DNA of 7,751 nt from a virus. Taxonomy: Duplodnaviria; Heunggongvirae; Uroviricota; Caudoviricetes. The position numbers were made by a program, and so were the translations under genes. Under the pieces are notes generated by a model. The model saw only the letters and a program-made list of their open reading frames with translations. It was not told where the DNA came from and did no database searches. The DNA lies in IMG/VR virus record IMGVR_UViG_2698536571_000012; one strand, written 5' to 3'. Shown here one piece after another: positions 23-7,751 of this stretch (position 1 is its first letter; every line of letters begins with the position of its first letter).

Positions 23-268
23 TCAAAATCGGTGGAGCTGCATGACAAAGTCATCGGGCATTATCTGAACATAAAACACTATCAATAAGTTGGAGTCATT
101 ACCCAGCTTCCAAGCCTTATTACATTTAATCTGAGCATCGAGAATATCATTTCTGATAGCTGGAGCGTAACCGGATACATCGCTAATATTCATTAACTCT
201 TTGCACGATAGCATAGGCGCGTTATTGCGTTCAGTGGTCACGTTACCTGCATTCTTCTTACTGGTCAC
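23..268 (-). CDS. Hypothetical protein, 3' segment of a frame-disrupted gene downstream of the tape measure gene
   Basis: Track ORF with GTG start at 268 and TGA stop at 23-25. Hand translation shows the same frame stays open with no stop up to 571 (182 codons) but has no ATG/GTG/TTG before 268. An open frame this long in AT-rich DNA is unlikely by chance, so the coding region probably extends upstream (see finding on 23-701). Confidence 0.5.
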
Positions 269-548
269 ACCACCGTCATTTGTGGTAGCCGTTTTGCCAG
301 TGGCTGCTGAAATATCAGTTTGACCTACGATTGCTTTAAAGTTAATTTCCTGAAAAGTTAGCTGGATACGAAGACCGTTAGAGATAGTAACATCTTTAGA
401 GGCTTTAAAGTTGGTAATAATGGAATCGTCAATTTTAATTCCATCTTTACAGATAACAGAAATAATCTGCTTCTGGTCACGCCAGTTTTCCAGAGTGTCA
501 ATGAAGTTTTCTACTAATTGACCCTGACGAGTTAATAATAAGCTTCCT

Positions 549-740
<192 letters not shown>

Positions 741-857
741 TCATTTTTAACCAAGCCTTTGATATATATGTATTTTCTCTGTTAAGCGTGAGCTACGTGA
801 AAAATAATTTTTGGTGTGGGTATTAACTTTGCTTTATTCACGTAGAACACCGTTAAA

Positions 858-3038
858 TCATTCTTCCTCTGGATAGCTTGAACTTAAGAGCATATCCTGC
901 GTGAACTGGTCATTAGCTGATTGATTGAAAGTAAAGAAAGATGGTTCATCTGGTCGAACGACAACTTGACCACCAAGTGAAACTTTCACTGGCTCCTGAA
1001 TACGCTTACTCAAAGCACTAATTTCATCCCTCAGACCCTGAATATCTGCACTCGTTAATGCTGAATCTTGCTTAATGTTGTTTAACTCTGGATGATTGAA
1101 TCTTGCAATATTCATTGTGGCATTGTTAAACAATTCACCCATTGAACTAAAAATTCTACTCCATCCTTCGTTAATCATATTCGGTTTATTAGGGTCACCA
1201 GAATACACGGGATTAAAGTCACTACCCACACCTACCCCAGACGGATGCATATTAGCGTTTTTGACTACTTCCTGATTCATAAAATCCAGTGCTTTCTTCA
1301 ATGCATATAAACCAAGAGTGACGCCTCTGATTTGTGGAATCATTGAAGCTAATGCTAACGCTGTTTCATAACCGTCATCAGCATAACCAATTGCAAGAGC
1401 ACTACCTACACCACCAGCTACACCTTTCAGTTTTCCACCACCTTTACCAGTAGCTACCTGACCAGCCACCTGATTAGCTCTTGTACCTAACGTTGTGATT
1501 GCTCTTGTCAGGTTCATAACCCCTGTAGTAGCACTGAATAGCGTCTTTGCAGATAACGCTATAGCAAGACCTTTGACGAAGTTGATAAAACCATCACCGA
1601 CTTCATCAAGTAGTTTTCGTTTAGTGTCATCAAGGCTGTAATAGAACTTCTTAGTCTGTAAAATCCAGCCTTCAATGGTGTTATTGAATACGCGAATATC
1701 ATCTACACCAGCTTTAAGCATGTCGATAAGTCCACCGATAGCATCACCAGCGATAGAAGAACTCATCCCCATTTCACTAAGCAGGTTACTCAGGCTGGAT
1801 AAGAAGCCGTTTAGCTCATCCTGTGAACCTGAGAAGATTTTCACCATCGTATCATCCCAATTGTTTGCTAACTTACCTAAAGCTGTCTGAGTGCTCTTAG
1901 TGACTTCAGCCCAGCCACCCGCTTTATCAATCATCAAGCCCATCTGTTTAGCGACTTTAGGGAGAGTATCAGCGGAAAGTACCTTCCCGTTTTTCATGGC
2001 TGCATCAAGCTCTGTAGCAGTCATACCCAATGCTTCAGCGAATAGCTTAAATGCACCAGCCATACGGTCACCTAACTGCCCACGTAATTCCTCAGCCTGA
2101 ATCTTGCCCTTGCTCGCCATCTGCTCAAATGCTCTCAAAATGCCGTTTAGCTCATCGTTAGAAAGCCCCATTAAGCGACTCATAGCCGTTGCATTACCAA
2201 ATAGCTCCTGTGTCTGTTCCTGTGACATAGAACCCTGAGCACCTGCTGCAAACTTAGCGTAGCTTGATAGCCCTTCAGAGATATTAAGACCTGTCTTGTC
2301 TGCTAAATTTCGAATAAATACCTCAGCTTCAGATGCTTTATCACCAAGTACAAACTTAGCGGCTCTCTGTGCGGAATCTCGTTTAAGACCTGCATTCATA
2401 ATGGCCTTGTAAGCGTTAAGAGCACCCATCACAGAGTAAAATGCACCAGATAATTTAATCGCATTGCTTGCAAGATTATTAAATGCGTCGCTTGTATTGT
2501 TAATGCTGGCGGTCTTTGTCTGTGACCTGAGTTTATTCAACGTTTCACGAAGAGATTGATTTAATTTTGCAAGTTCAGCGTTAAACTTTTCACTTCCAAT
2601 ATTACCAGCCTTACCGCTTAAGCTGTAATACTGTGCTTTAAACATTTTAGCCATCAGCGGATTAATATCACCAAGCTTAGACATATTCACGCTATGCGCT
2701 GCTGTGATTGCTCTGTTTCCGCTAATTCGTGGTTGCCTTGATTGTTTTGGAGGATTAACAGTGTCATTAAATCTGGTGGCAAACTGAAATGCTTTTGTGC
2801 TTCTTGCTCTCTGCTCAATCTTGTCAAAGGTCTTATTAAACTTCCTTTCAAGCTGCCCTAAAGAACTTGTCAGATTGCTGTCAAGTTGCTTGGTATCGAC
2901 CTTAAACGCTCTATTCAAATTGCGTTCAATTCTTTGTGCTGACTGCAAAGCTGCCTTTTCAACTCTTTGCAAGCCCTTAATAACGTTTTCACTGAAACTA
3001 AGTTCAACGATAAAACTATCAACTGTGAATTTGCTCAT
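858..3038 (-). CDS. Phage tail tape measure protein (726 aa)
   Basis: Long, largely helical protein with the conserved tape-measure motif region (...GKIQAEELRGQLGDRMAGAFKLFAEALGMTATELDAAMKNGKVLSADTLPKVAKQMG...) and a Gly-rich hydrophobic segment (GKGGGKLKGVAGGVGSALAIGYADDGY). Start ATG 3038-3036 with GAGGTG Shine-Dalgarno 8 nt upstream. By the lambda gpH rule of thumb (~0.15 nm per residue) this would set a tail of roughly 100-110 nm. Confidence 0.85.
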   Translation of the reverse strand: MSKFTVDSFIVELSFSENVIKGLQRVEKAALQSAQRIERNLNRAFKVDTKQLDSNLTSSLGQLERKFNKTFDKIEQRARSTKAFQFATRFNDTVNPPKQSRQPRISGNRAITAAHSVNMSKLGDINPLMAKMFKAQYYSLSGKAGNIGSEKFNAELAKLNQSLRETLNKLRSQTKTASINNTSDAFNNLASNAIKLSGAFYSVMGALNAYKAIMNAGLKRDSAQRAAKFVLGDKASEAEVFIRNLADKTGLNISEGLSSYAKFAAGAQGSMSQEQTQELFGNATAMSRLMGLSNDELNGILRAFEQMASKGKIQAEELRGQLGDRMAGAFKLFAEALGMTATELDAAMKNGKVLSADTLPKVAKQMGLMIDKAGGWAEVTKSTQTALGKLANNWDDTMVKIFSGSQDELNGFLSSLSNLLSEMGMSSSIAGDAIGGLIDMLKAGVDDIRVFNNTIEGWILQTKKFYYSLDDTKRKLLDEVGDGFINFVKGLAIALSAKTLFSATTGVMNLTRAITTLGTRANQVAGQVATGKGGGKLKGVAGGVGSALAIGYADDGYETALALASMIPQIRGVTLGLYALKKALDFMNQEVVKNANMHPSGVGVGSDFNPVYSGDPNKPNMINEGWSRIFSSMGELFNNATMNIARFNHPELNNIKQDSALTSADIQGLRDEISALSKRIQEPVKVSLGGQVVVRPDEPSFFTFNQSANDQFTQDMLLSSSYPEEE

Positions 3039-3070
3039 TCATGTTTCACCTCTTTAAGTGTTCATATACG

Positions 3071-3111
3071 AAAAAGGGAAAGACTACCGATATCACTCGA
3101 TAATCTCTCCC
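3071..3111 (-). terminator. Rho-independent terminator-like hairpin immediately upstream of the tape measure gene
   Basis: On the minus-strand RNA: GGGAGAGA-U-UAUCGA-[GUGAUA]-UCGGUA-G-UCUUUCCC, about 14 bp of interrupted stem with G-U wobbles, followed directly by UUUUU (plus 3071-3075). Only ~18 nt separate the U-tract from the tape measure RBS. Confidence 0.5.
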
Positions 3112-3136
3112 GTAGATTTTCACCCAACCAATCTTG

Positions 3137-3343
3137 TTACCTAACCAGATAATAATTACCATCTTCACCAACAATCTGACAATCACTTGGTAATTTATCA
3201 AGACACCACTTAGCTATTTTCCTGATTCTATTCTTTTGCTTAGAGGAGGTGAATGATTTGATTCGTTTTGGTTTGTTGGGTTGTTCTTTCAATCGTTCAC
3301 TAATTGCTTTAATAAGCTCATAGCGTTCTGTTAAATCAATCAT
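3137..3343 (-). CDS. Hypothetical small basic protein (68 aa)
   Basis: Track ORF; ATG at 3343 preceded by AAGGTGGTGGTG; TAA stop 3139-3137. Lys/Arg-rich (KEQPNKPKRIKSFTSSKQKNRIRKIAK). Sits where a tail assembly chaperone would be expected, but is not acidic and shows no overlapping -1 frame partner. Confidence 0.65.
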   Translation of the reverse strand: MIDLTERYELIKAISERLKEQPNKPKRIKSFTSSKQKNRIRKIAKWCLDKLPSDCQIVGEDGNYYLVR

Positions 3344-3367
3344 TCACCACCACCTTTTAATTATTAA

Positions 3368-4078
3368 TTAAATAGCCTTTGCATATTTGCTAGAAATCTT
3401 CGTAAGCTGCTCAATATCAGCCTGCATAGCAATCTTCTTAGCATCTTCATATTCTTTCACAAGCTCTTTCATAGCCTGAAGCTCTCTTGAGAGATACAAC
3501 TTAACATTATCAAGTTGCTTGTTACGTGATGCCAAGATGTTCTGTCTAGCAATTTCAGCGAGTTCTTCATCGCTCTTATTAGTCATGTAAATAAACTGAC
3601 CAGCACCTCTTGATGCCTTAACCATCTTCACAATTCGATGTCCAGCAGGAAGACTACTAATCACGGCTGCGACGTTTTCTTGAAAAGTACCAAAACCATC
3701 ATTATCTTCGTATTGGTAATAGACAAATGGTTTCTGTGACAATTCATCCTGAATCTCAAATTCTGACGGCTCAATAGCTGATTGCATCAAGGTAACTTTG
3801 CTGTAAGCGTCATCTAATCTAAGGCGCTGTTCTTTCAGCAGTTGGTAATATTTCTTTTCAAGCTCAAGTAATGCTTCACTCTTGCAAATATCAGGCATCT
3901 CTTGAGGCTCAGGAGACACAAAGATGGTTGTTTTTGGTGACATCTTTAGCGATTGCTCAAGCTCAATACGCTTGTCATGCTCTTTACGCTGAATAGTGAT
4001 AGCTGGATGTTCAGTCTGTGGCGACCAGTCACTGAAGCTATCAATCACTTTGCCATTAATGTAAATATCATTTGTCAT
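3368..4078 (-). CDS. Hypothetical protein (236 aa) with predicted coiled-coil C-terminus
   Basis: Start reassigned to ATG 4078-4076 (MTNDIYINGK...) because GAGGA sits 6 nt upstream; the track's GTG start at 4126 has no RBS. TAA stop 3370-3368. Heptad-like C-terminal region (DEELAEIARQNILASRNKQLDNVKLYLSRELQAMKELVKEYEDAKKIAMQ). Function not recognisable by eye. Confidence 0.7.
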   Translation of the reverse strand: MTNDIYINGKVIDSFSDWSPQTEHPAITIQRKEHDKRIELEQSLKMSPKTTIFVSPEPQEMPDICKSEALLELEKKYYQLLKEQRLRLDDAYSKVTLMQSAIEPSEFEIQDELSQKPFVYYQYEDNDGFGTFQENVAAVISSLPAGHRIVKMVKASRGAGQFIYMTNKSDEELAEIARQNILASRNKQLDNVKLYLSRELQAMKELVKEYEDAKKIAMQADIEQLTKISSKYAKAI

Positions 4079-4253
4079 TGCTTTTCCTCTTCTAAGCGGA
4101 AGTGTTTCAGTTTTTAAAAAGCACACCTGACAGCCTATCTAAACTTAGAAGAGACTTAAAAGGCGGTTTGCCAAGTATGCTTTTTAAAAGCTGAATAGCC
4201 CTAGATAATTTCTTATAAAGGGCCATTCATAAGGTGAAGAAATTAAAACATCT

Positions 4254-4275
4254 AAAGGATTCAAAAAGGATTCAA
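4254..4275. repeat. Perfect tandem duplication, 2 x 11 bp (AAAGGATTCAA)
   Basis: Exact copies at 4254-4264 and 4265-4275 inside the ORF-free island. Confidence 0.9.
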
Positions 4276-4398
4276 ACGAATGAACAAGAGTACTTTTCGA
4301 GATGACCTCTCAGACTAACCTGAAAGGTCATGTAGCGAAAAGCATTGCACCTTTCAGAATAACTATCATTGATGTAGAATGATTAATAGTTTAATTCA

Positions 4399-4415
4399 GG
4401 AAGAGTTGCTCTTCC
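4399..4415. repeat. Perfect 17-bp palindrome GGAAGAG-TTG-CTCTTCC
   Basis: Arms 4399-4405 and 4409-4415 are exact reverse complements. No U-tract follows on either strand, so more likely a protein-binding dyad than a terminator. Confidence 0.85.
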
Positions 4416-4553
4416 CTATTACCATCATCTCATGCTTAAGGTTATTTGTCAACAGCTTTTTAACAGATTGGTAACATCAATTCTTATTTACCGTATTACC
4501 TACCCAGCAACCAACAAATAACCCTAAAGTCATCCAGAGAATAACGAGTGTCA

Positions 4554-4859
4554 TTACATCACCTCGCTGTAAGGGTTTAATTCATTCTGATAGGTCAAGA
4601 ATACATTCAGCTTCAATAATTGCTCAGGGCTTAAATCAAGTCGATTGCACTCTTCAATGATAAAGCGCTTATTGTATGGGTCTGTTACTTCCAGCTTGTG
4701 AACATAGTCACCAAGTTTAATTTCGTTGATTATATGCTTGTCAATATACGTTGACGCTTCAAAACAATGCATGAAATAGATATTAAAGCCCGACCTGTTC
4801 AGGTCAATCAACCAATTCATGGTTTCTTGGTCAACCATAATTTGCATTGGGTAATTCAT
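4554..4859 (-). CDS. Hypothetical protein (101 aa)
   Basis: Track ORF; ATG at 4859 with AGGAAGGA about 8 nt upstream; TAA stop 4556-4554. No recognisable motif. Confidence 0.7.
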   Translation of the reverse strand: MNYPMQIMVDQETMNWLIDLNRSGFNIYFMHCFEASTYIDKHIINEIKLGDYVHKLEVTDPYNKRFIIEECNRLDLSPEQLLKLNVFLTYQNELNPYSEVM

Positions 4860-5005
4860 TTTTAAAATCCTTCCTGTATCGCATTCTAAGACGTTTTAAC
4901 CCCTTTTTTAGACCACTTAAGGCGATTCCCTAAGTTACCCTGATTAGGGGCTTAAAAACGTTTCTGGTGCGTCTGGTAAAGCCTGAGAGATATGTTTTGC
5001 TGTTT

Positions 5006-5233
5006 TTAGCTCAAGTCTGAGACTAATAGCCCCATCTGGTGACCGTAGTCTTTTAACCAGCTTTGCTTAACCGGAGTCTTCAGAGAATAGTTAGGGGCTG
5101 ACAAGTGAAGATAGATATCATCTTTGCCGTGGATACTTCCCCATCCTTCGTATAACTCAAGCAAGTTTTCAAAATAACGAAATGCTTTATTAGTCTGAAG
5201 TTGTACTGTGATAGTTTTCATCAAGCACCCCAT
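5006..5233 (-). CDS. Hypothetical protein (75 aa; 71 aa if started at ATG 5221)
   Basis: Track ORF. The alternative ATG at 5221-5219 overlaps the upstream gene's TGA stop (TGATG, 1-nt overlap), consistent with translational coupling. Confidence 0.65.
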   Translation of the reverse strand: MGCLMKTITVQLQTNKAFRYFENLLELYEGWGSIHGKDDIYLHLSAPNYSLKTPVKQSWLKDYGHQMGLLVSDLS

Positions 5234-5442
5234 TCAGAAATAAGCTTAATTCCCTGCTCAAGCTGTTCAGGGTCGTTATAGTCGAGTATTACCAGTGGCT
5301 TTAATTCGTGTTTAAGCTGGTGGATTTGAGAGGGTTTTAATCGTTTGTTTGCTTTGAGGGTCACATCTTCAAATTCAGCATCTGCTAAATTCTGTCTGAT
5401 TAGGTGGCGGCCAAGTGTGGAATATTGGAACCTATAACACAT
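5221..5442 (-). CDS. Hypothetical protein (73 aa), middle gene of the coupled three-gene operon
   Basis: ATG 5442-5440 overlaps the TAA stop of the upstream gene (TAATG); GGAGG 4 nt upstream. TGA stop 5223-5221. Confidence 0.7.
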   Translation of the reverse strand: MCYRFQYSTLGRHLIRQNLADAEFEDVTLKANKRLKPSQIHQLKHELKPLVILDYNDPEQLEQGIKLISEWGA

Positions 5443-5732
5443 TAAACCTCCAATCTATCCGCCAGTTGATGGACCTTAGCGCTTAACACCTGAATCATTG
5501 AGCAACCTGCTACTGCGGACTGTGCTTTGAGTAGTTCCAGTTGGCCCGTTGTGATTCTGATGGCCTTAGAACCCTCTGCGACGCCCTTAACGTTATCGAA
5601 AGGGCTAAGGTTTACCGACTCTTTTAAAATCTCCCCAACAAGCGCTGTGTGCTTCATATCGGGATATTTGGCTTTGATTGCTGCCAGTCGTTCAAATGCC
5701 TCTGGCAAAAGGCGCGTAACTGTGTGAGTCAT
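5442..5732 (-). CDS. Putative ribbon-helix-helix (CopG/Arc-like) DNA-binding protein (96 aa)
   Basis: Start reassigned to ATG 5732-5730, which has AAGGAG 9 nt upstream; the track start at 5762 has no RBS. N-terminus fits an RHH pattern: beta-strand HTVTRL, helix LPEAFERLAAIKAKY, helix HTALVGEILKESV. The fold call is by eye only. Confidence 0.65.
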   Translation of the reverse strand: MTHTVTRLLPEAFERLAAIKAKYPDMKHTALVGEILKESVNLSPFDNVKGVAEGSKAIRITTGQLELLKAQSAVAGCSMIQVLSAKVHQLADRLEV

Positions 5733-5790
5733 TGTAAAAATCTCCTTAAATCTCTTACTCATACTACAATCTTAACATCTATTTAACATA

Positions 5791-5819
5791 TTGTCAGTAC
5801 CTCATTTACATGATACTAT
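5791..5819 (+). promoter_or_regulatory. Sigma70-like promoter for the small plus-strand gene
   Basis: TTGTCA (5791-5796), 17-bp spacer, TACTAT (5814-5819) with TG at 5811-5812 (extended -10). Lies ~50 nt upstream of the 5870 start codon. Confidence 0.4.
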
Positions 5820-5869
5820 GGTTGTAGGGGCTGATACAGGTGCTGTTTCCTTTCACAAAAGGAAAATTA

Positions 5870-6046
5870 ATGCATGATTTTTTCACAGCAATTATTGAAT
5901 CTCATCGTTTTAGCTCGTTGGGCTTTGCGGTATTTATTGTGCTATTGGTGTTTTGCGTTATGAATCGAGTCATTACAAAAAAGACAAAGCTTACAATTCG
6001 ACTTAAACTTCTTCGTGTTGAGATAGAGATTTCAGTAAATAAATAG
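5870..6046 (+). CDS. Small single-pass membrane protein (58 aa), candidate toxin or exclusion-type moron
   Basis: ATG 5870 with AGGA 6 nt upstream; the track's GTG start at 5840 has no RBS. Sequence MHDFFTAIIESHRFSSLGFAVFIVLLVFCVMNRVITKKTKLTIRLKLLRVEIEISVNK: one hydrophobic helix followed by a cationic tail. TAG stop 6044-6046. Confidence 0.6.
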   Translation: MHDFFTAIIESHRFSSLGFAVFIVLLVFCVMNRVITKKTKLTIRLKLLRVEIEISVNK

Positions 6047-6055
6047 CTGGTGGCC

Positions 6056-6352
6056 TTACCGGCACTTTCCCTTGATAATATTGGTGGCCCTCAGATTACC
6101 GGGGTCACCGTCTTTTAATCGTAGCTGGTGGACTGAATCCCATAAATCGTAATGATACAGCACCGCAAACTTCAAAGCGTCAATCTTTAAATCTGTCACA
6201 TCATCGACGAAATAATAATCCCTCCCTTCTTTCTTCGGTCGAATCCGGTAAACTTCCCCGTGAGTATCTTTCATCAAGTAACCTTCACGAGAAATGCTGT
6301 AACGTCTGAGTAAATAGTCACGGTATTTTCTCTCGCCATTATAAGTTTTCAT
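6056..6352 (-). CDS. Hypothetical basic protein (98 aa), translationally coupled to the replication initiator
   Basis: ATG 6352-6350 overlaps the initiator's TAA stop (TAATG); GGAGGA 8 nt upstream; TAA stop 6058-6056. Tyr/Arg/Lys-rich. Confidence 0.7.
   Translation of the reverse strand: MKTYNGERKYRDYLLRRYSISREGYLMKDTHGEVYRIRPKKEGRDYYFVDDVTDLKIDALKFAVLYHYDLWDSVHQLRLKDGDPGNLRATNIIKGKCR
6083..6116 (+). terminator. Rho-independent terminator-like hairpin for the small plus-strand gene
   Basis: Plus RNA stem GGUGGCCC (6083-6090) pairs with GGGUCACC (6102-6109), 8 bp with one G-U, 11-nt loop, then G-UCUUUU (6110-6116). It lies inside the 3' end of the convergent 98-aa gene. Confidence 0.45.
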
Positions 6353-7305
6353 TAAAACATTCCTCCACCATAAACACGTCTGACTTTAACTTTTTCTTTC
6401 TTTGGCTCGGTGTGAGTTTTCTTTTTTGGTGTAAAAGTAAAATCATCGTCACTATCATCAAAGTCATCGAGGTCACTAACCTTGTTCTTTAGCTTCGCAT
6501 TTCTGAATCTTTCTTTAATTTCTGCTTTACGCTGTTCACGTTTCAATTCCTCTTCAGGGTCTTCTTCATCATCAAGGTCAACATCCGGTAATTCATCATC
6601 AGTGGCGGGGCACTGTGTGTTTTTATGGTCACTACTAGCAATCACATCAGAGATTTTATCTTCCTTTTTAACGACCTCTTTAGCAGCTTCACTATCAAGG
6701 TCATCTAAGTCAGATGTTTTAACAGTCTCTTTAATAGCCTCTTCAATACCAAGAGAATCACATTCATGTGAATCACAGAGCGAAGCTCCCTTCTTAAAAT
6801 ATTCTTCTTCAAAGTCATCTTCTTTATTGTTATTAATAAGTTCTTTCTTGTTATTACTGTTATTATACGTGTCAAAGATTTTGACTGACTGAGTAAAAAA
6901 TTTTGACTCAGTGGGTAAAGAATTTTGACTCAGTGGGTCATCTTTCTTGACTGACTGAGTAACTTTAGACTCCAGCTTTGCCTTTCTGGCTTCCTTAGCT
7001 GTAAGCTCTGTTAAAACCTCCGGTACTTCATCAAGTGAATAAACTTTAATAACACACTGATTGCTTGCAACGTTAGTTTTCTTGATTAAACCATGTGCCT
7101 CAAGTTGTTTCATACATGCAATCACGGATGTTCTTGTGATTCCAGCATACTGACCAAGATGAGCATATGAAGGGGTATAATATTGCCCCTTATCGTGATA
7201 AAACTTTTGTTCATTCAACATGACAGTGTAAATAATACGGTCGGCAGCTTTAACGCCATTAGTCATCTGATAAATACGGTCATCAAACATGTGGAATTTT
7301 TCCAT
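6352..7305 (-). CDS. Phage replication initiator (lambda-O-like organiser) with internal origin, 317 aa
   Basis: Start reassigned to ATG 7305-7303 (MEKFHMFDD...) with AAGGAAAA RBS; the track's GTG start at 7362 adds an implausible 19-aa leader. N-terminal winged-helix-like segment (YAHLGQYAGITRTSVIACMKQLEAHGLIKK), a central linker encoded by the iterons, and a strongly acidic C-terminal tail (SDLDDLD, DVDLDDEEDPEEE, SDLDDFDDSDDDF). Confidence 0.75.
   Translation of the reverse strand: MEKFHMFDDRIYQMTNGVKAADRIIYTVMLNEQKFYHDKGQYYTPSYAHLGQYAGITRTSVIACMKQLEAHGLIKKTNVASNQCVIKVYSLDEVPEVLTELTAKEARKAKLESKVTQSVKKDDPLSQNSLPTESKFFTQSVKIFDTYNNSNNKKELINNNKEDDFEEEYFKKGASLCDSHECDSLGIEEAIKETVKTSDLDDLDSEAAKEVVKKEDKISDVIASSDHKNTQCPATDDELPDVDLDDEEDPEEELKREQRKAEIKERFRNAKLKNKVSDLDDFDDSDDDFTFTPKKKTHTEPKKEKVKVRRVYGGGMF
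6790..6870. other. AT-rich tract adjacent to the iterons (candidate DNA-unwinding element of the origin)
   Basis: About 80 bp of mostly A/T (ttcttaaaatattcttcttcaaagtcatcttctttattgttattaataagttctttcttgttattactgttattatacg) directly next to the iteron array, inside the initiator ORF. Confidence 0.55.
6879..6962. repeat. Iteron array: four 18-bp direct repeats at exact 22-bp phasing
   Basis: TTTTGACTGACTGAGTAA (6879-6896), TTTTGACTCAGTGGGTAA (6901-6918), TTTTGACTCAGTGGGTCA (6923-6940), TCTTGACTGACTGAGTAA (6945-6962), plus a degenerate copy TTTAGACTCCAG (6965-6976). Confidence 0.8.
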
Positions 7306-7458
7306 TATATTTTCCTTTTTAAAAATAAAACAAAGAAAGGGCTGACCACGTATAGTGACCAACCCCAGAGGGAGTGAATTAATTAGAAGATGGACTGATA
7401 AAGGAACTCAGAAGCCTGAGCGATTACGCGAGTATTAACAGCAAAAGGAAAAGCCTTG

Positions 7459-7488
7459 ATTGAATAAGAGGCCGTGAAAATCTGTCAA
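7459..7488 (-). promoter_or_regulatory. Candidate sigma70 promoter for the replication operon
   Basis: On the minus strand, consensus TTGACA (plus 7488-7483), 18-bp spacer, TTCAAT (plus 7464-7459). The -10 is weak (no A at position 2), so this is tentative. Confidence 0.3.
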
Positions 7489-7610
7489 TACCCTGACGCC
7501 TCCCAACGTTGTAACCTCTTAATGTTCTGAGTTCTTTTATCACCCCATATAAAAACCATAACAGATGTGATTATAAATTGCAACAATTATTTCACAGAAT
7601 AATTACTGAT

Positions 7611-7673
7611 TGGTCATTTATTGTTCACAGGGATACTTCTTAATATCTGAATCACCTATCTTGTAAATGACCA
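7611..7673. repeat. 10-bp perfect inverted repeat TGGTCATTTA / TAAATGACCA (candidate operator)
   Basis: Arms at 7611-7620 and 7664-7673, 43 bp apart, in the untranslated region upstream of the replication operon. Confidence 0.6.
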
Positions 7674-7751
7674 TATTTATGAGAATTTTAGCTCAACCTT
7701 TGAGCAATCCTGTATGACGTGCTCAGAGGCATTCTGAGAGCATCTGCAATG

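Follow-up and report, generated by a model that had tools for sequence, protein, structure and literature searches.

An ~11-kb chromosomal island of Enterobacteriaceae carrying tape measure and tube initiator genes of Felix O1-like phage origin: a candidate PLE-like satellite

The 7,751-nt DNA recorded as virus IMGVR_UViG_2698536571_000012 (the whole stretch analyzed, herein called the window) came from the chromosome of Shigella sonnei, with 99.97% identity to locus L012, and covered most of an ~11-kb genomic island with its own tape measure protein (TMP) gene, followed downstream by a tube initiator (TI) gene. The best explanation, held with moderate confidence, is that this integrative and self-replicating island exploits virulent Felix O1-like myophages (Ounavirinae) as a PLE-like satellite or parasite, because it follows the same logic as PLE (recombinase, initiator plus origin, TMP, and a gene downstream of TMP); its own TMP and TI would most likely hijack or sabotage Felix O1-like tail assembly. 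The evidence is about evenly balanced on the wider proposal that Enterobacteriaceae (E. coli, Shigella, Salmonella, Citrobacter, and Pluralibacter) harbor widespread, apparently undescribed ~11-kb satellites of Felix O1-like phages, whose TMP and TI build chimeric tails and/or block helper tails; a full-text literature search gave no description of an enterobacterial or Felix O1-linked island of this kind.

The intact TMP gene (858 to 3038, minus strand) encoded a 726-aa protein, and its identification in the preliminary description of this DNA, which had been made from the letters and open reading frames (ORFs) alone, was confirmed by matches to Pfam TMP_3 (2e-21; 77 bits vs. a cut-off of 41), NCBIfam TIGR02675 (1.7e-15; 57 bits vs. 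a cut-off of 21), and PHROGs phrog_4036 (4e-93). It was homologous to, though diverged from, the TMPs of Ounavirinae (gp17 in Bas63), and its termini were phage-like. When aligned with the TMP of Escherichia phage garuso (E value 8e-82; 33% identity over residues 1 to 498), it displayed the following segments: (i) residues 1 to 46, with 34 of 46 positions identical; (ii) core residues 231 to 420, with 85 of 190 identical; (iii) residues 47 to 230 (40/238) and residues 421 to 700 (45/299), giving only 15 to 17% identity on the two sides of the core; and (iv) the last 12 residues (715 to 726), with 11 of 12 identical and ending in LLSSSYPEEE. Bas63 gp17 shared both termini, and the last 25 residues of the Bas63 TMP are the modelled part that touches the puncturing apparatus and the hub (PMC12609058). 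Judged by this alignment, the island TMP retains the phage N-terminus and the tip docking to the hub and puncturing apparatus and has diverged elsewhere; the near-identical termini single out the residues by which TMP docks, both into the hub and at the head-proximal end.

Island TMPs constituted a separate, diverse lineage, with 42 to 48% identity between subtypes and 27 to 33% to phage TMPs, and had lengths of 682 to 726 aa, shorter than those of garuso (735 aa) and Bas63 (742 aa); their ratio of nonsynonymous to synonymous substitution rates (dN/dS) was 0.12 to 0.38. The core of the window-type TMP (QMASKGKIQAEELRGQLGDR...) was closer to the phage TMP than to other island TMPs, and nucleotide identity to phage reached 80% across the TMP start; these two observations together indicate recurrent recombination with co-infecting phages.

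A second tail gene could not have been recognized in the preliminary description. In the window, TI was a pseudogene (103 to 701, minus strand), an ortholog of Bas63 gp18 with the Pfam domain Dit_like, in which IS1 had removed the 3′ 116 nt and a 74-bp deletion at 553/554 shifted the reading frame; it had 87 to 95% nucleotide identity to the gene located directly downstream of TMP in garuso. Intact island TI copies encoded proteins of 253 to 262 aa that were annotated as 'phage baseplate protein', matched Dit_like at 2.4e-20, and showed 58 to 81% identity to phage TI, with dN/dS of 0.04 to 0.28. The island gene mapped to bas63_0018, whose product is the tube initiator: a hexamer of tube-like fold, mounted on the trimeric hub as the first ring, from which the tube begins (PMC12609058).

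Phage homologs of the island TMP and TI came only from Ounavirinae-type myophages (Felixounavirus, Mooglevirus, SUSP-like phages, and Erwinia relatives), and sequence comparison places the origin of both island tail genes in Felix O1-like lytic phages. The structural genes of the island were exactly these two, which are homologs of Bas63 gp17 and gp18, follow each other as in the phage, share its TMP termini, and differ little from it in length; of the other virion genes of these phages, among them those for the chaperone pair (gp15/16), tube, sheath, and hub, the island had no copies. When all island ORFs were compared with garuso (tblastn), matches were limited to TMP, TI, and one AP2/HNH-type endonuclease domain. 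Unlike in the phages, where TMP and TI abut, the island genes were separated by a 156-nt regulatory-looking spacer, and the island TMP, unlike that of the phage, was preceded by a terminator-like hairpin (see below). GC content was 39% in Escherichia islands and 42% in the Pluralibacter island, compared to 50% and 60% in the respective host flanks and 38.9% in the garuso genome.

The S. sonnei island was placed between the rut-operon side and wrbA, with host genes and insertion sequence (IS) elements within 10 kb on both sides. Those 10-kb flanks contained no terminase, portal, capsid, baseplate-wedge, sheath, tube, or lysis genes; likewise, intact E. coli islands were ~11 kb in length and bounded by host genes, and no terminase, portal, major capsid, tube/sheath, or lysis genes were found within 10 kb on either side of them. 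The absence of packaging, head, and lysis genes noted in the preliminary description therefore held for the window and for the 10-kb flanks of the source genome, and a standard head-to-tail module there, which had been named beforehand as evidence against that description, was not found. The islands shared the gene order large serine recombinase, TI, TMP, ~68-aa gene, ~236-aa gene, ~105-aa gene, variable small ORFs (some of HNH or AP2 type), replication module, and Dam methyltransferase with a helix-turn-helix (HTH), often with a small resolvase gene at the end after Dam-HTH. The recombinase had 507 aa with the Pfam domains Resolvase, Recombinase, and Zn_ribbon_recom. The same gene order was found in E. 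coli (L024) and Pluralibacter gergoviae (L025), even though their 236-aa relatives were only 27 to 28% identical. All four tail-side genes (TMP, TI, and the 68-aa and 236-aa genes) were under purifying selection (dN/dS 0.04 to 0.6).

A megablast search with positions 858 to 4078 of the window against 5426 complete E. coli genomes gave island matches in up to 468 of them, all chromosomal and at no more than four places per genome; only 38 genomes covered at least 80% of the query, indicating that most copies are divergent. At least five insertion sites were recognized, namely inside yecE, tonB–yciI, dinB–lafU, msyB–lpxL, and the rut–wrbA region. The recombinase module was found on opposite sides and in opposite orientations in islands of different subtypes (16525 to 19111 in L007 vs. 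13365 to 14888 in L003), in both cases beside the attachment site (att), which indicates that integration modules with different targets were swapped. The S. sonnei copy displayed the IS-driven decay typical of this species: its recombinase gene was split by an IS3-family element, and IS1 and IS21 followed the broken TI, while TMP, the 68-aa and 236-aa genes, and rep were still intact; with a TI pseudogene and a split recombinase, it has probably lost its mobility. In L005 (Shigella flexneri CP182556.1), an IS-rich region contained at 9935 to 11544 a second TMP relative, frameshifted and 37% identical to residues 186 to 726, which probably marks a further decayed island belonging to a different subtype. 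No plasmid record matched the window beyond IS1.

Mobility was further indicated by the island boundaries, the large serine recombinase inserting the island site-specifically. The yecE junctions were identical in three islands with different cargo, defining attL and attR precisely, and from these identical junctions attP was predicted as CCTCATAGTGTATTTAGACCTTGATGATTTT followed by TATTAGACACGTTTAAATACACTACC. This exact attP was carried, free of host DNA, by a metagenome contig (L096; ERZ1090866 NODE-760; 11,473 bp; 6x coverage) at about 2,934 to 2,990 nt from its 3′ end on the reverse strand, within the order 236-aa gene, TMP, TI, recombinase, attP, small resolvase, Dam, and Rep. Such an attP, devoid of host DNA, documents directly at the sequence level that the island occurs as an excised circle or, with lower likelihood, as a tandem copy. 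Both ends of L096 lay inside rep beside a 23-bp iteron array, a natural assembly break point; its left end started with Nextera adapter sequence, an assembly artefact. In another locus (L032; SKEF01003551.1), the attR-side arm of attP was fused near position 8,100 to the middle of the recombinase gene, so that the recombinase lacked its N-terminal 46% and attP its other arm; this looks like a deletion derivative of a circular or tandem form.

The replication initiator gene (6352 to 7305, minus strand) encoded a lambda-O-like protein of 317 aa with a winged-HTH N-terminus and an acidic C-terminus, which matched phrog_8102 (1.9e-10) and several 'replication initiation O-like' PHROGs, as well as Pfam DnaD_N and HTH below threshold. 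Four tandem 22-bp iterons (repeat family D1; 6871 to 6958) were located inside this gene as a putative replication origin, and origin-like iterons within the initiator gene make up a lambda-O arrangement; these iterons also encoded a repeated TQSVK motif in the initiator linker. The replication module that the preliminary description had placed within 3 kb of TMP was thus real, although the initiator gene started 3.3 kb upstream of the TMP start.

Two core island genes preceded TMP: (i) the 236-aa gene (3368 to 4078, minus strand; 236 aa from ATG or 252 aa from an upstream GTG), whose acidic product was mostly helical (coiled-coil-like), and (ii) the 68-aa gene (3137 to 3343, minus strand), whose product was basic (pI 9.7, vs. 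4.5 to 4.8 for Felix O1-like tail chaperones), as had been noted beforehand. The earlier finding that no chaperone pair precedes TMP was borne out in several ways. The two ORFs lay in the same frame with two stop codons between them and no overlap; no X XXY YYZ heptamer was present inside either ORF, the sole one found lying at 3078 in the intergenic hairpin; and hhalign of the upstream proteins against phage chaperone profiles gave probabilities of at most 0.1%. Neither protein had a match in Pfam, PHROGs, NCBIfam, PADLOC, or PDB sequences, and by these comparisons they are not homologs of tube or chaperone proteins. Foldseek searches with AlphaFold models gave no fold match for the 236-aa protein in the viral library (pLDDT 64; long helices at 68 to 100 and 170 to 235) or for the 68-aa protein in PDB (pLDDT 71; N-terminal helix, basic linker, and small beta/alpha domain).

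The 236-aa family comprised 3119 homolog clusters at 90% identity and contained no Pfam domain; its named members were all from Enterobacteriaceae (E. coli, Shigella, Salmonella, E. albertii, E. marmotae, Citrobacter, and Pluralibacter). The 'transposase' label attached to this protein in most RefSeq/GenBank records was unsupported by Pfam, NCBIfam, or PHROG and looks like a propagated misannotation. The 68-aa family comprised 59 homolog clusters, all from Escherichia, and unannotated 68-aa homologs occupied the same position in L024 and L025. The dN/dS values were ~0.1 for the 68-aa gene and 0.2 to 0.6 for the 236-aa gene. By analogy with known satellites, one could speculate that these two proteins act as a TMP-specific chaperone, an Rta-like inhibitor of the helper TMP, or a Sid/CpmB-like capsid-size scaffold. 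Some islands had an extra acidic protein of 91 to 102 aa encoded between the ~236-aa and 68-aa genes (9729 to 10037 in L008; 10697 to 10972 in L025); it was chaperone-like in size and charge, yet hhalign against phage chaperones was negative.

The closest parallel is PLE of Vibrio cholerae, whose helper is the lytic myophage ICP1. PLE encodes its own TMP, tail chaperone, and baseplate hub protein (BhuB), which replace those of ICP1 in chimeric tails, as shown in 2026 by western blot, mass spectrometry, and electron microscopy with tail length; an 80-aa protein of PLE11, Rta, blocks the helper TMP (PMC12987554). Like PLE, the present element was a small chromosomal island that integrates by means of a large serine recombinase, has an initiator and origin of its own, and has a virulent myophage as presumed helper; both carried their own TMP and a second inner-baseplate protein (BhuB in PLE; TI, directly downstream of TMP, in the island), both had a TMP far from that of the helper (20% identity for PLE and ~30% for the island), and both had small orphan proteins beside TMP (Rta of 80 aa in PLE11; 68 aa in the island). 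The differences were as follows: (i) the island resided in Enterobacteriaceae and its presumed helpers are Ounavirinae; (ii) the island had no tail chaperone gene recognizable by Pfam, PHROGs, profile comparison, or fold search; (iii) the island TI was 58 to 81% identical to that of the helper, compared to 41% for PLE BhuB and that of ICP1; and (iv) the TMP termini of the island were nearly identical to those of the helper. PLE is ~18 kb and the island ~11 kb in length. Chimeric tails have been shown experimentally for PLE and are predicted for the island from its genes; the likeness drawn here is to the published description of PLE.

By this parallel, infection by a Felix O1-like phage would cause the island to excise and replicate and then to express TMP, TI, and the 236-aa and 68-aa proteins. 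The island TMP and TI would replace their phage counterparts, with hub, tube, sheath, and fibers coming from the phage, and the resulting chimeric tails would let the island spread in phage capsids and would lower phage yield.

Putative tmp genes have also been noted in other satellites (PMC12987554, PMC12822802). Satellite-type elements reported to carry TMP, including EPIPs, shared the TMP gene with the island, and EPIPs also have a serine integrase; in contrast, those elements additionally encode capsid, scaffold, head-tail connector, or small terminase, while the island had only TMP and TI. PICMIs of Vibrionaceae resemble the island in being very small, in having a virulent helper (presumed for the island), and in lacking capsid-remodelling genes, and they are packaged as concatemers in full-size heads (PMC10803314). 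By analogy, the island, if packaged, would probably enter full-size heads as a concatemer. PICMIs reportedly carry no tail structural genes, and the two tail genes of the island, together with its O-like initiator and large serine recombinase, set it apart from them. The hallmarks are tyrosine integrase, alpA, pri-rep, and terS or capsid redirection for PICI; capsid, portal, and connector for cf-PICI; and psu, sid, delta, and alpha for P4. None of the PICI, cf-PICI, or P4 hallmark domains was detected in island proteins with Pfam, PHROGs, and NCBIfam, the integrase being a serine recombinase.

Several observations weigh against a Felix O1-dependent satellite. The island is known from sequence, and helper induction, packaging, transduction, and interference are predictions. 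No small terminase, pac/cos mimic, capsid-size factor, or tail chaperone was recognizable in it (Pfam, PHROGs, and PADLOC scans; hhalign against chaperones). Its 11 kb amounts to one eighth of the 86-kb helper head, so that packaging would need concatemers or small capsids, and no gene for either was identified. The attP contig L096 could come from a tandem integrated dimer, and terminal overlaps were found in none of the 78 metagenome loci. Positions 3040 to 7751 and 715 to 870 of the window had no match in 50,697 phage records (blastn). The island-specific ~72-nt element (see below) was absent from the garuso genome (nhmmer) and from every phage record, and thus no shared late promoter was found. 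The IMG/VR matches were prophage-style calls in isolate genomes, not virion data.

The main alternative, although unlikely, is a defense-only island in which TMP and TI would act as dominant-negative decoys, becoming built into assembling Felix O1-like tails or titrating them and thereby causing abortive assembly, with no packaging by phage and with spread occurring vertically or by excision plus another route. Phage-like docking termini on a diverged body are what a poison subunit needs; neither packaging nor capsid-remodelling genes were recognized with Pfam and PHROGs; defense by interfering with tail assembly has been documented, as in the Tai systems (PMC11364771) and with Rta of PLE11 (PMC12987554); and S. 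sonnei keeps TMP, the 68-aa and 236-aa genes, and rep intact while TI and the recombinase are broken. However, a pure defense pair needs no initiator, origin, or recombinase, nor the circular form seen in L096; TI is so near the phage protein (up to 81% identity), with its low dN/dS, that it looks functional rather than poisonous; the only PADLOC-DB 2.0 match was at chance level (DpdF, E value 0.048); and the TMP of PLE, the sole experimentally studied parallel, is a working virion part. Defense and satellite spread are not mutually exclusive.

It is improbable that the island is mobilized by a helper outside Ounavirinae, or that TMP and TI have a non-tail role (envelope penetration or a DNA-uptake channel), the Felix O1 likeness then reflecting ancestry only. 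The ~72-nt element and the rest of the island DNA indeed have no phage counterpart, and TMPs can have channel-forming or enzymatic activities (PMC12609058); however, the near-identical interface termini, the 87 to 95% nucleotide identity of TI, and the 80% identity at the TMP 5′ end point to continuing exchange with present-day Felixounaviruses, and no other phage group holds closer homologs.

A decaying cryptic prophage remnant of a Felix O1-like relative, with TMP and the next gene kept by chance, is very improbable and is already contradicted by the data. TMP and TI are adjacent in phage order and erosion by IS elements is plain in the S. sonnei copy, but the same minimal gene set and order recurred, unaccompanied by further phage genes, in hundreds of genomes, at no fewer than five sites, and in a second genus; purifying selection acted on all four genes, and island TMPs formed their own diverse lineage; Ounavirinae are virulent, and the complete garuso record has no annotated integrase gene; and attP was intact in L096. 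The suggestion in the preliminary description of a reduced phage-derived element keeping part of a tail module was thus right in substance and understated, the island being a member of a compact, conserved, integrative, and self-replicating family rather than a decaying remnant. The other suggestion made there, a phage genome in which tail genes directly follow early genes (extended here to a phage-plasmid), has a negligible probability: all substantial genes lie on one strand, with the replication module and TMP within 7.7 kb, but the DNA belongs to a chromosome, host genes lie less than 10 kb away on either side, the element is only ~11 kb long and without head or packaging genes, and there was no plasmid match beyond IS1 and no phage match beyond TMP and TI.

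Should the satellite interpretation hold, the island would be a convergent enterobacterial counterpart of PLE in the host with the most developed genetics, PLE and PICMI of Vibrio being the main well-known satellites of strictly lytic phages, and tape-measure swapping could be tested with E. coli K-12 genetics and with Bas63 and Felix O1, whose tail and baseplate structure is solved, as helpers. By its megablast matches, the family is possibly present in up to ~9% of complete E. coli genomes; many S. sonnei lineage assemblies may carry it as well. Felix O1-like phages are used in Salmonella/E. coli typing, biocontrol, and therapy, where islands of this kind could reduce their efficacy or be disseminated by them.

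The spacer between TMP and TI contained two regulatory-looking elements: (i) a hairpin formed by inverted repeat I19 (CAAAGGCTTGG...CTAAGCCTTTG; 716 to 765, minus strand), located just upstream of the TI ribosome-binding site and kept in all E. coli islands examined, and (ii) the ~72-nt island-specific element (GCTACGTGAA..N35..TTCACGTAGC..CACGCTTAA; 779 to 849, minus strand), in which an 11-bp inverted repeat flanks a conserved ATACCCAC core. By nhmmer, the latter preceded TI in all E. coli islands, and it was repeated upstream of TMP (E values 1e-17 to 1e-20) in L006, L007, L008, L024, and L025. Copies were located at 11124 to 11195 in L006, 11147 to 11218 in L007, 9355 to 9427 in L008, 11038 to 11109 in L024, and 11234 to 11305 and 4853 to 4924 in L025, the Pluralibacter island, in which a third copy of the element lies near one end. 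In the window, only the TI copy was intact, the copy before TMP being cut down to its 3′ end. The stem of the element showed wobble changes only and no compensatory pairs, and the element is a candidate regulated promoter/operator or RNA element. Between the 68-aa gene and TMP lay an intrinsic-terminator-like hairpin (3076 to 3111, minus strand; 15 pairs plus a T-run), whose position was kept in all islands and whose stems differed yet stayed paired in L002 and in Pluralibacter L025. Taken together, the hairpin, the ~72-nt element, and the TMP–TI spacer suggest that TMP and TI may be expressed separately and conditionally. The best sigma-70-like promoter (4424 to 4452, minus strand; TTGACA-17-TGnGATGAT) was ~345 nt upstream of the 236-aa gene and matched 10 of 12 positions with an extended −10, as a consensus match only; sigma-70-like matches in the window numbered 13, compared to a mean of 20 in shuffled sequences, which is fewer than expected by chance. 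An Rfam scan gave matches at chance level only.

All substantial ORFs of the window were on the minus strand. The 101-aa acidic protein (4554 to 4859, minus strand) belonged to a family of 101 to 109 aa that was always encoded upstream of the 236-aa gene; it had 25 to 31% identity to the 107- to 109-aa proteins of other E. coli islands, only 37 residues aligned with Pluralibacter L025_103 (43% identity; E value 4e-9), and there was no match in Pfam or PHROGs. Members of this ~105-aa family (homologs at 19528 to 19851 in L003 and 9301 to 9612 in L025) may be regulators: apparent tandem ribbon-helix-helix repeats, seen by eye and without a profile match, would make them DNA-binding regulators. 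Further upstream, a variable cargo region (5006 to 5442, minus strand) contained two small ORFs of 75 and 73 aa with no family matches and was not shared with the L002 and L003 islands. It was followed by a gene for a conserved basic protein, either 96 aa from an internal ATG (5442 to 5732, minus strand) or 106 aa from the first ATG (5442 to 5762, minus strand), which was called as 96 aa in S. sonnei genomes and was 94% identical to the 96-aa protein of L003.

A small ORF at 5870 to 6046 (plus strand), called as 58 aa in S. sonnei L013, L016, and L017, had a hydrophobic segment, with a divergent promoter-like pair before it (5769 to 5819) and a terminator-like hairpin after it (6046 to 6063); it could be a small membrane protein or toxin-like gene. 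Directly downstream of the initiator gene, a 98-aa basic protein was encoded (6056 to 6352, minus strand) with 88% identity to the 98-aa protein of L003, and this gene position was kept in L024 and L025. The last 64 nt of the window (7688 to 7751, minus strand), as mapped from L012 (5729 to 6391), belonged to a gene running off the window for a Dam-like N6-adenine methyltransferase with a C-terminal HTH, the L003 ortholog of which matched Pfam Dam (5e-15) and HTH_7. At the opposite end, positions 1 to 102 were the right end of the IS1 that truncated TI and lay outside the island proper; they were 98% identical to IS1A/IS1B ends that occur in thousands of records from both plasmids and chromosomes, the IS1 transposase gene came next in the source genome, and the match to other E. 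coli islands began at position 103.

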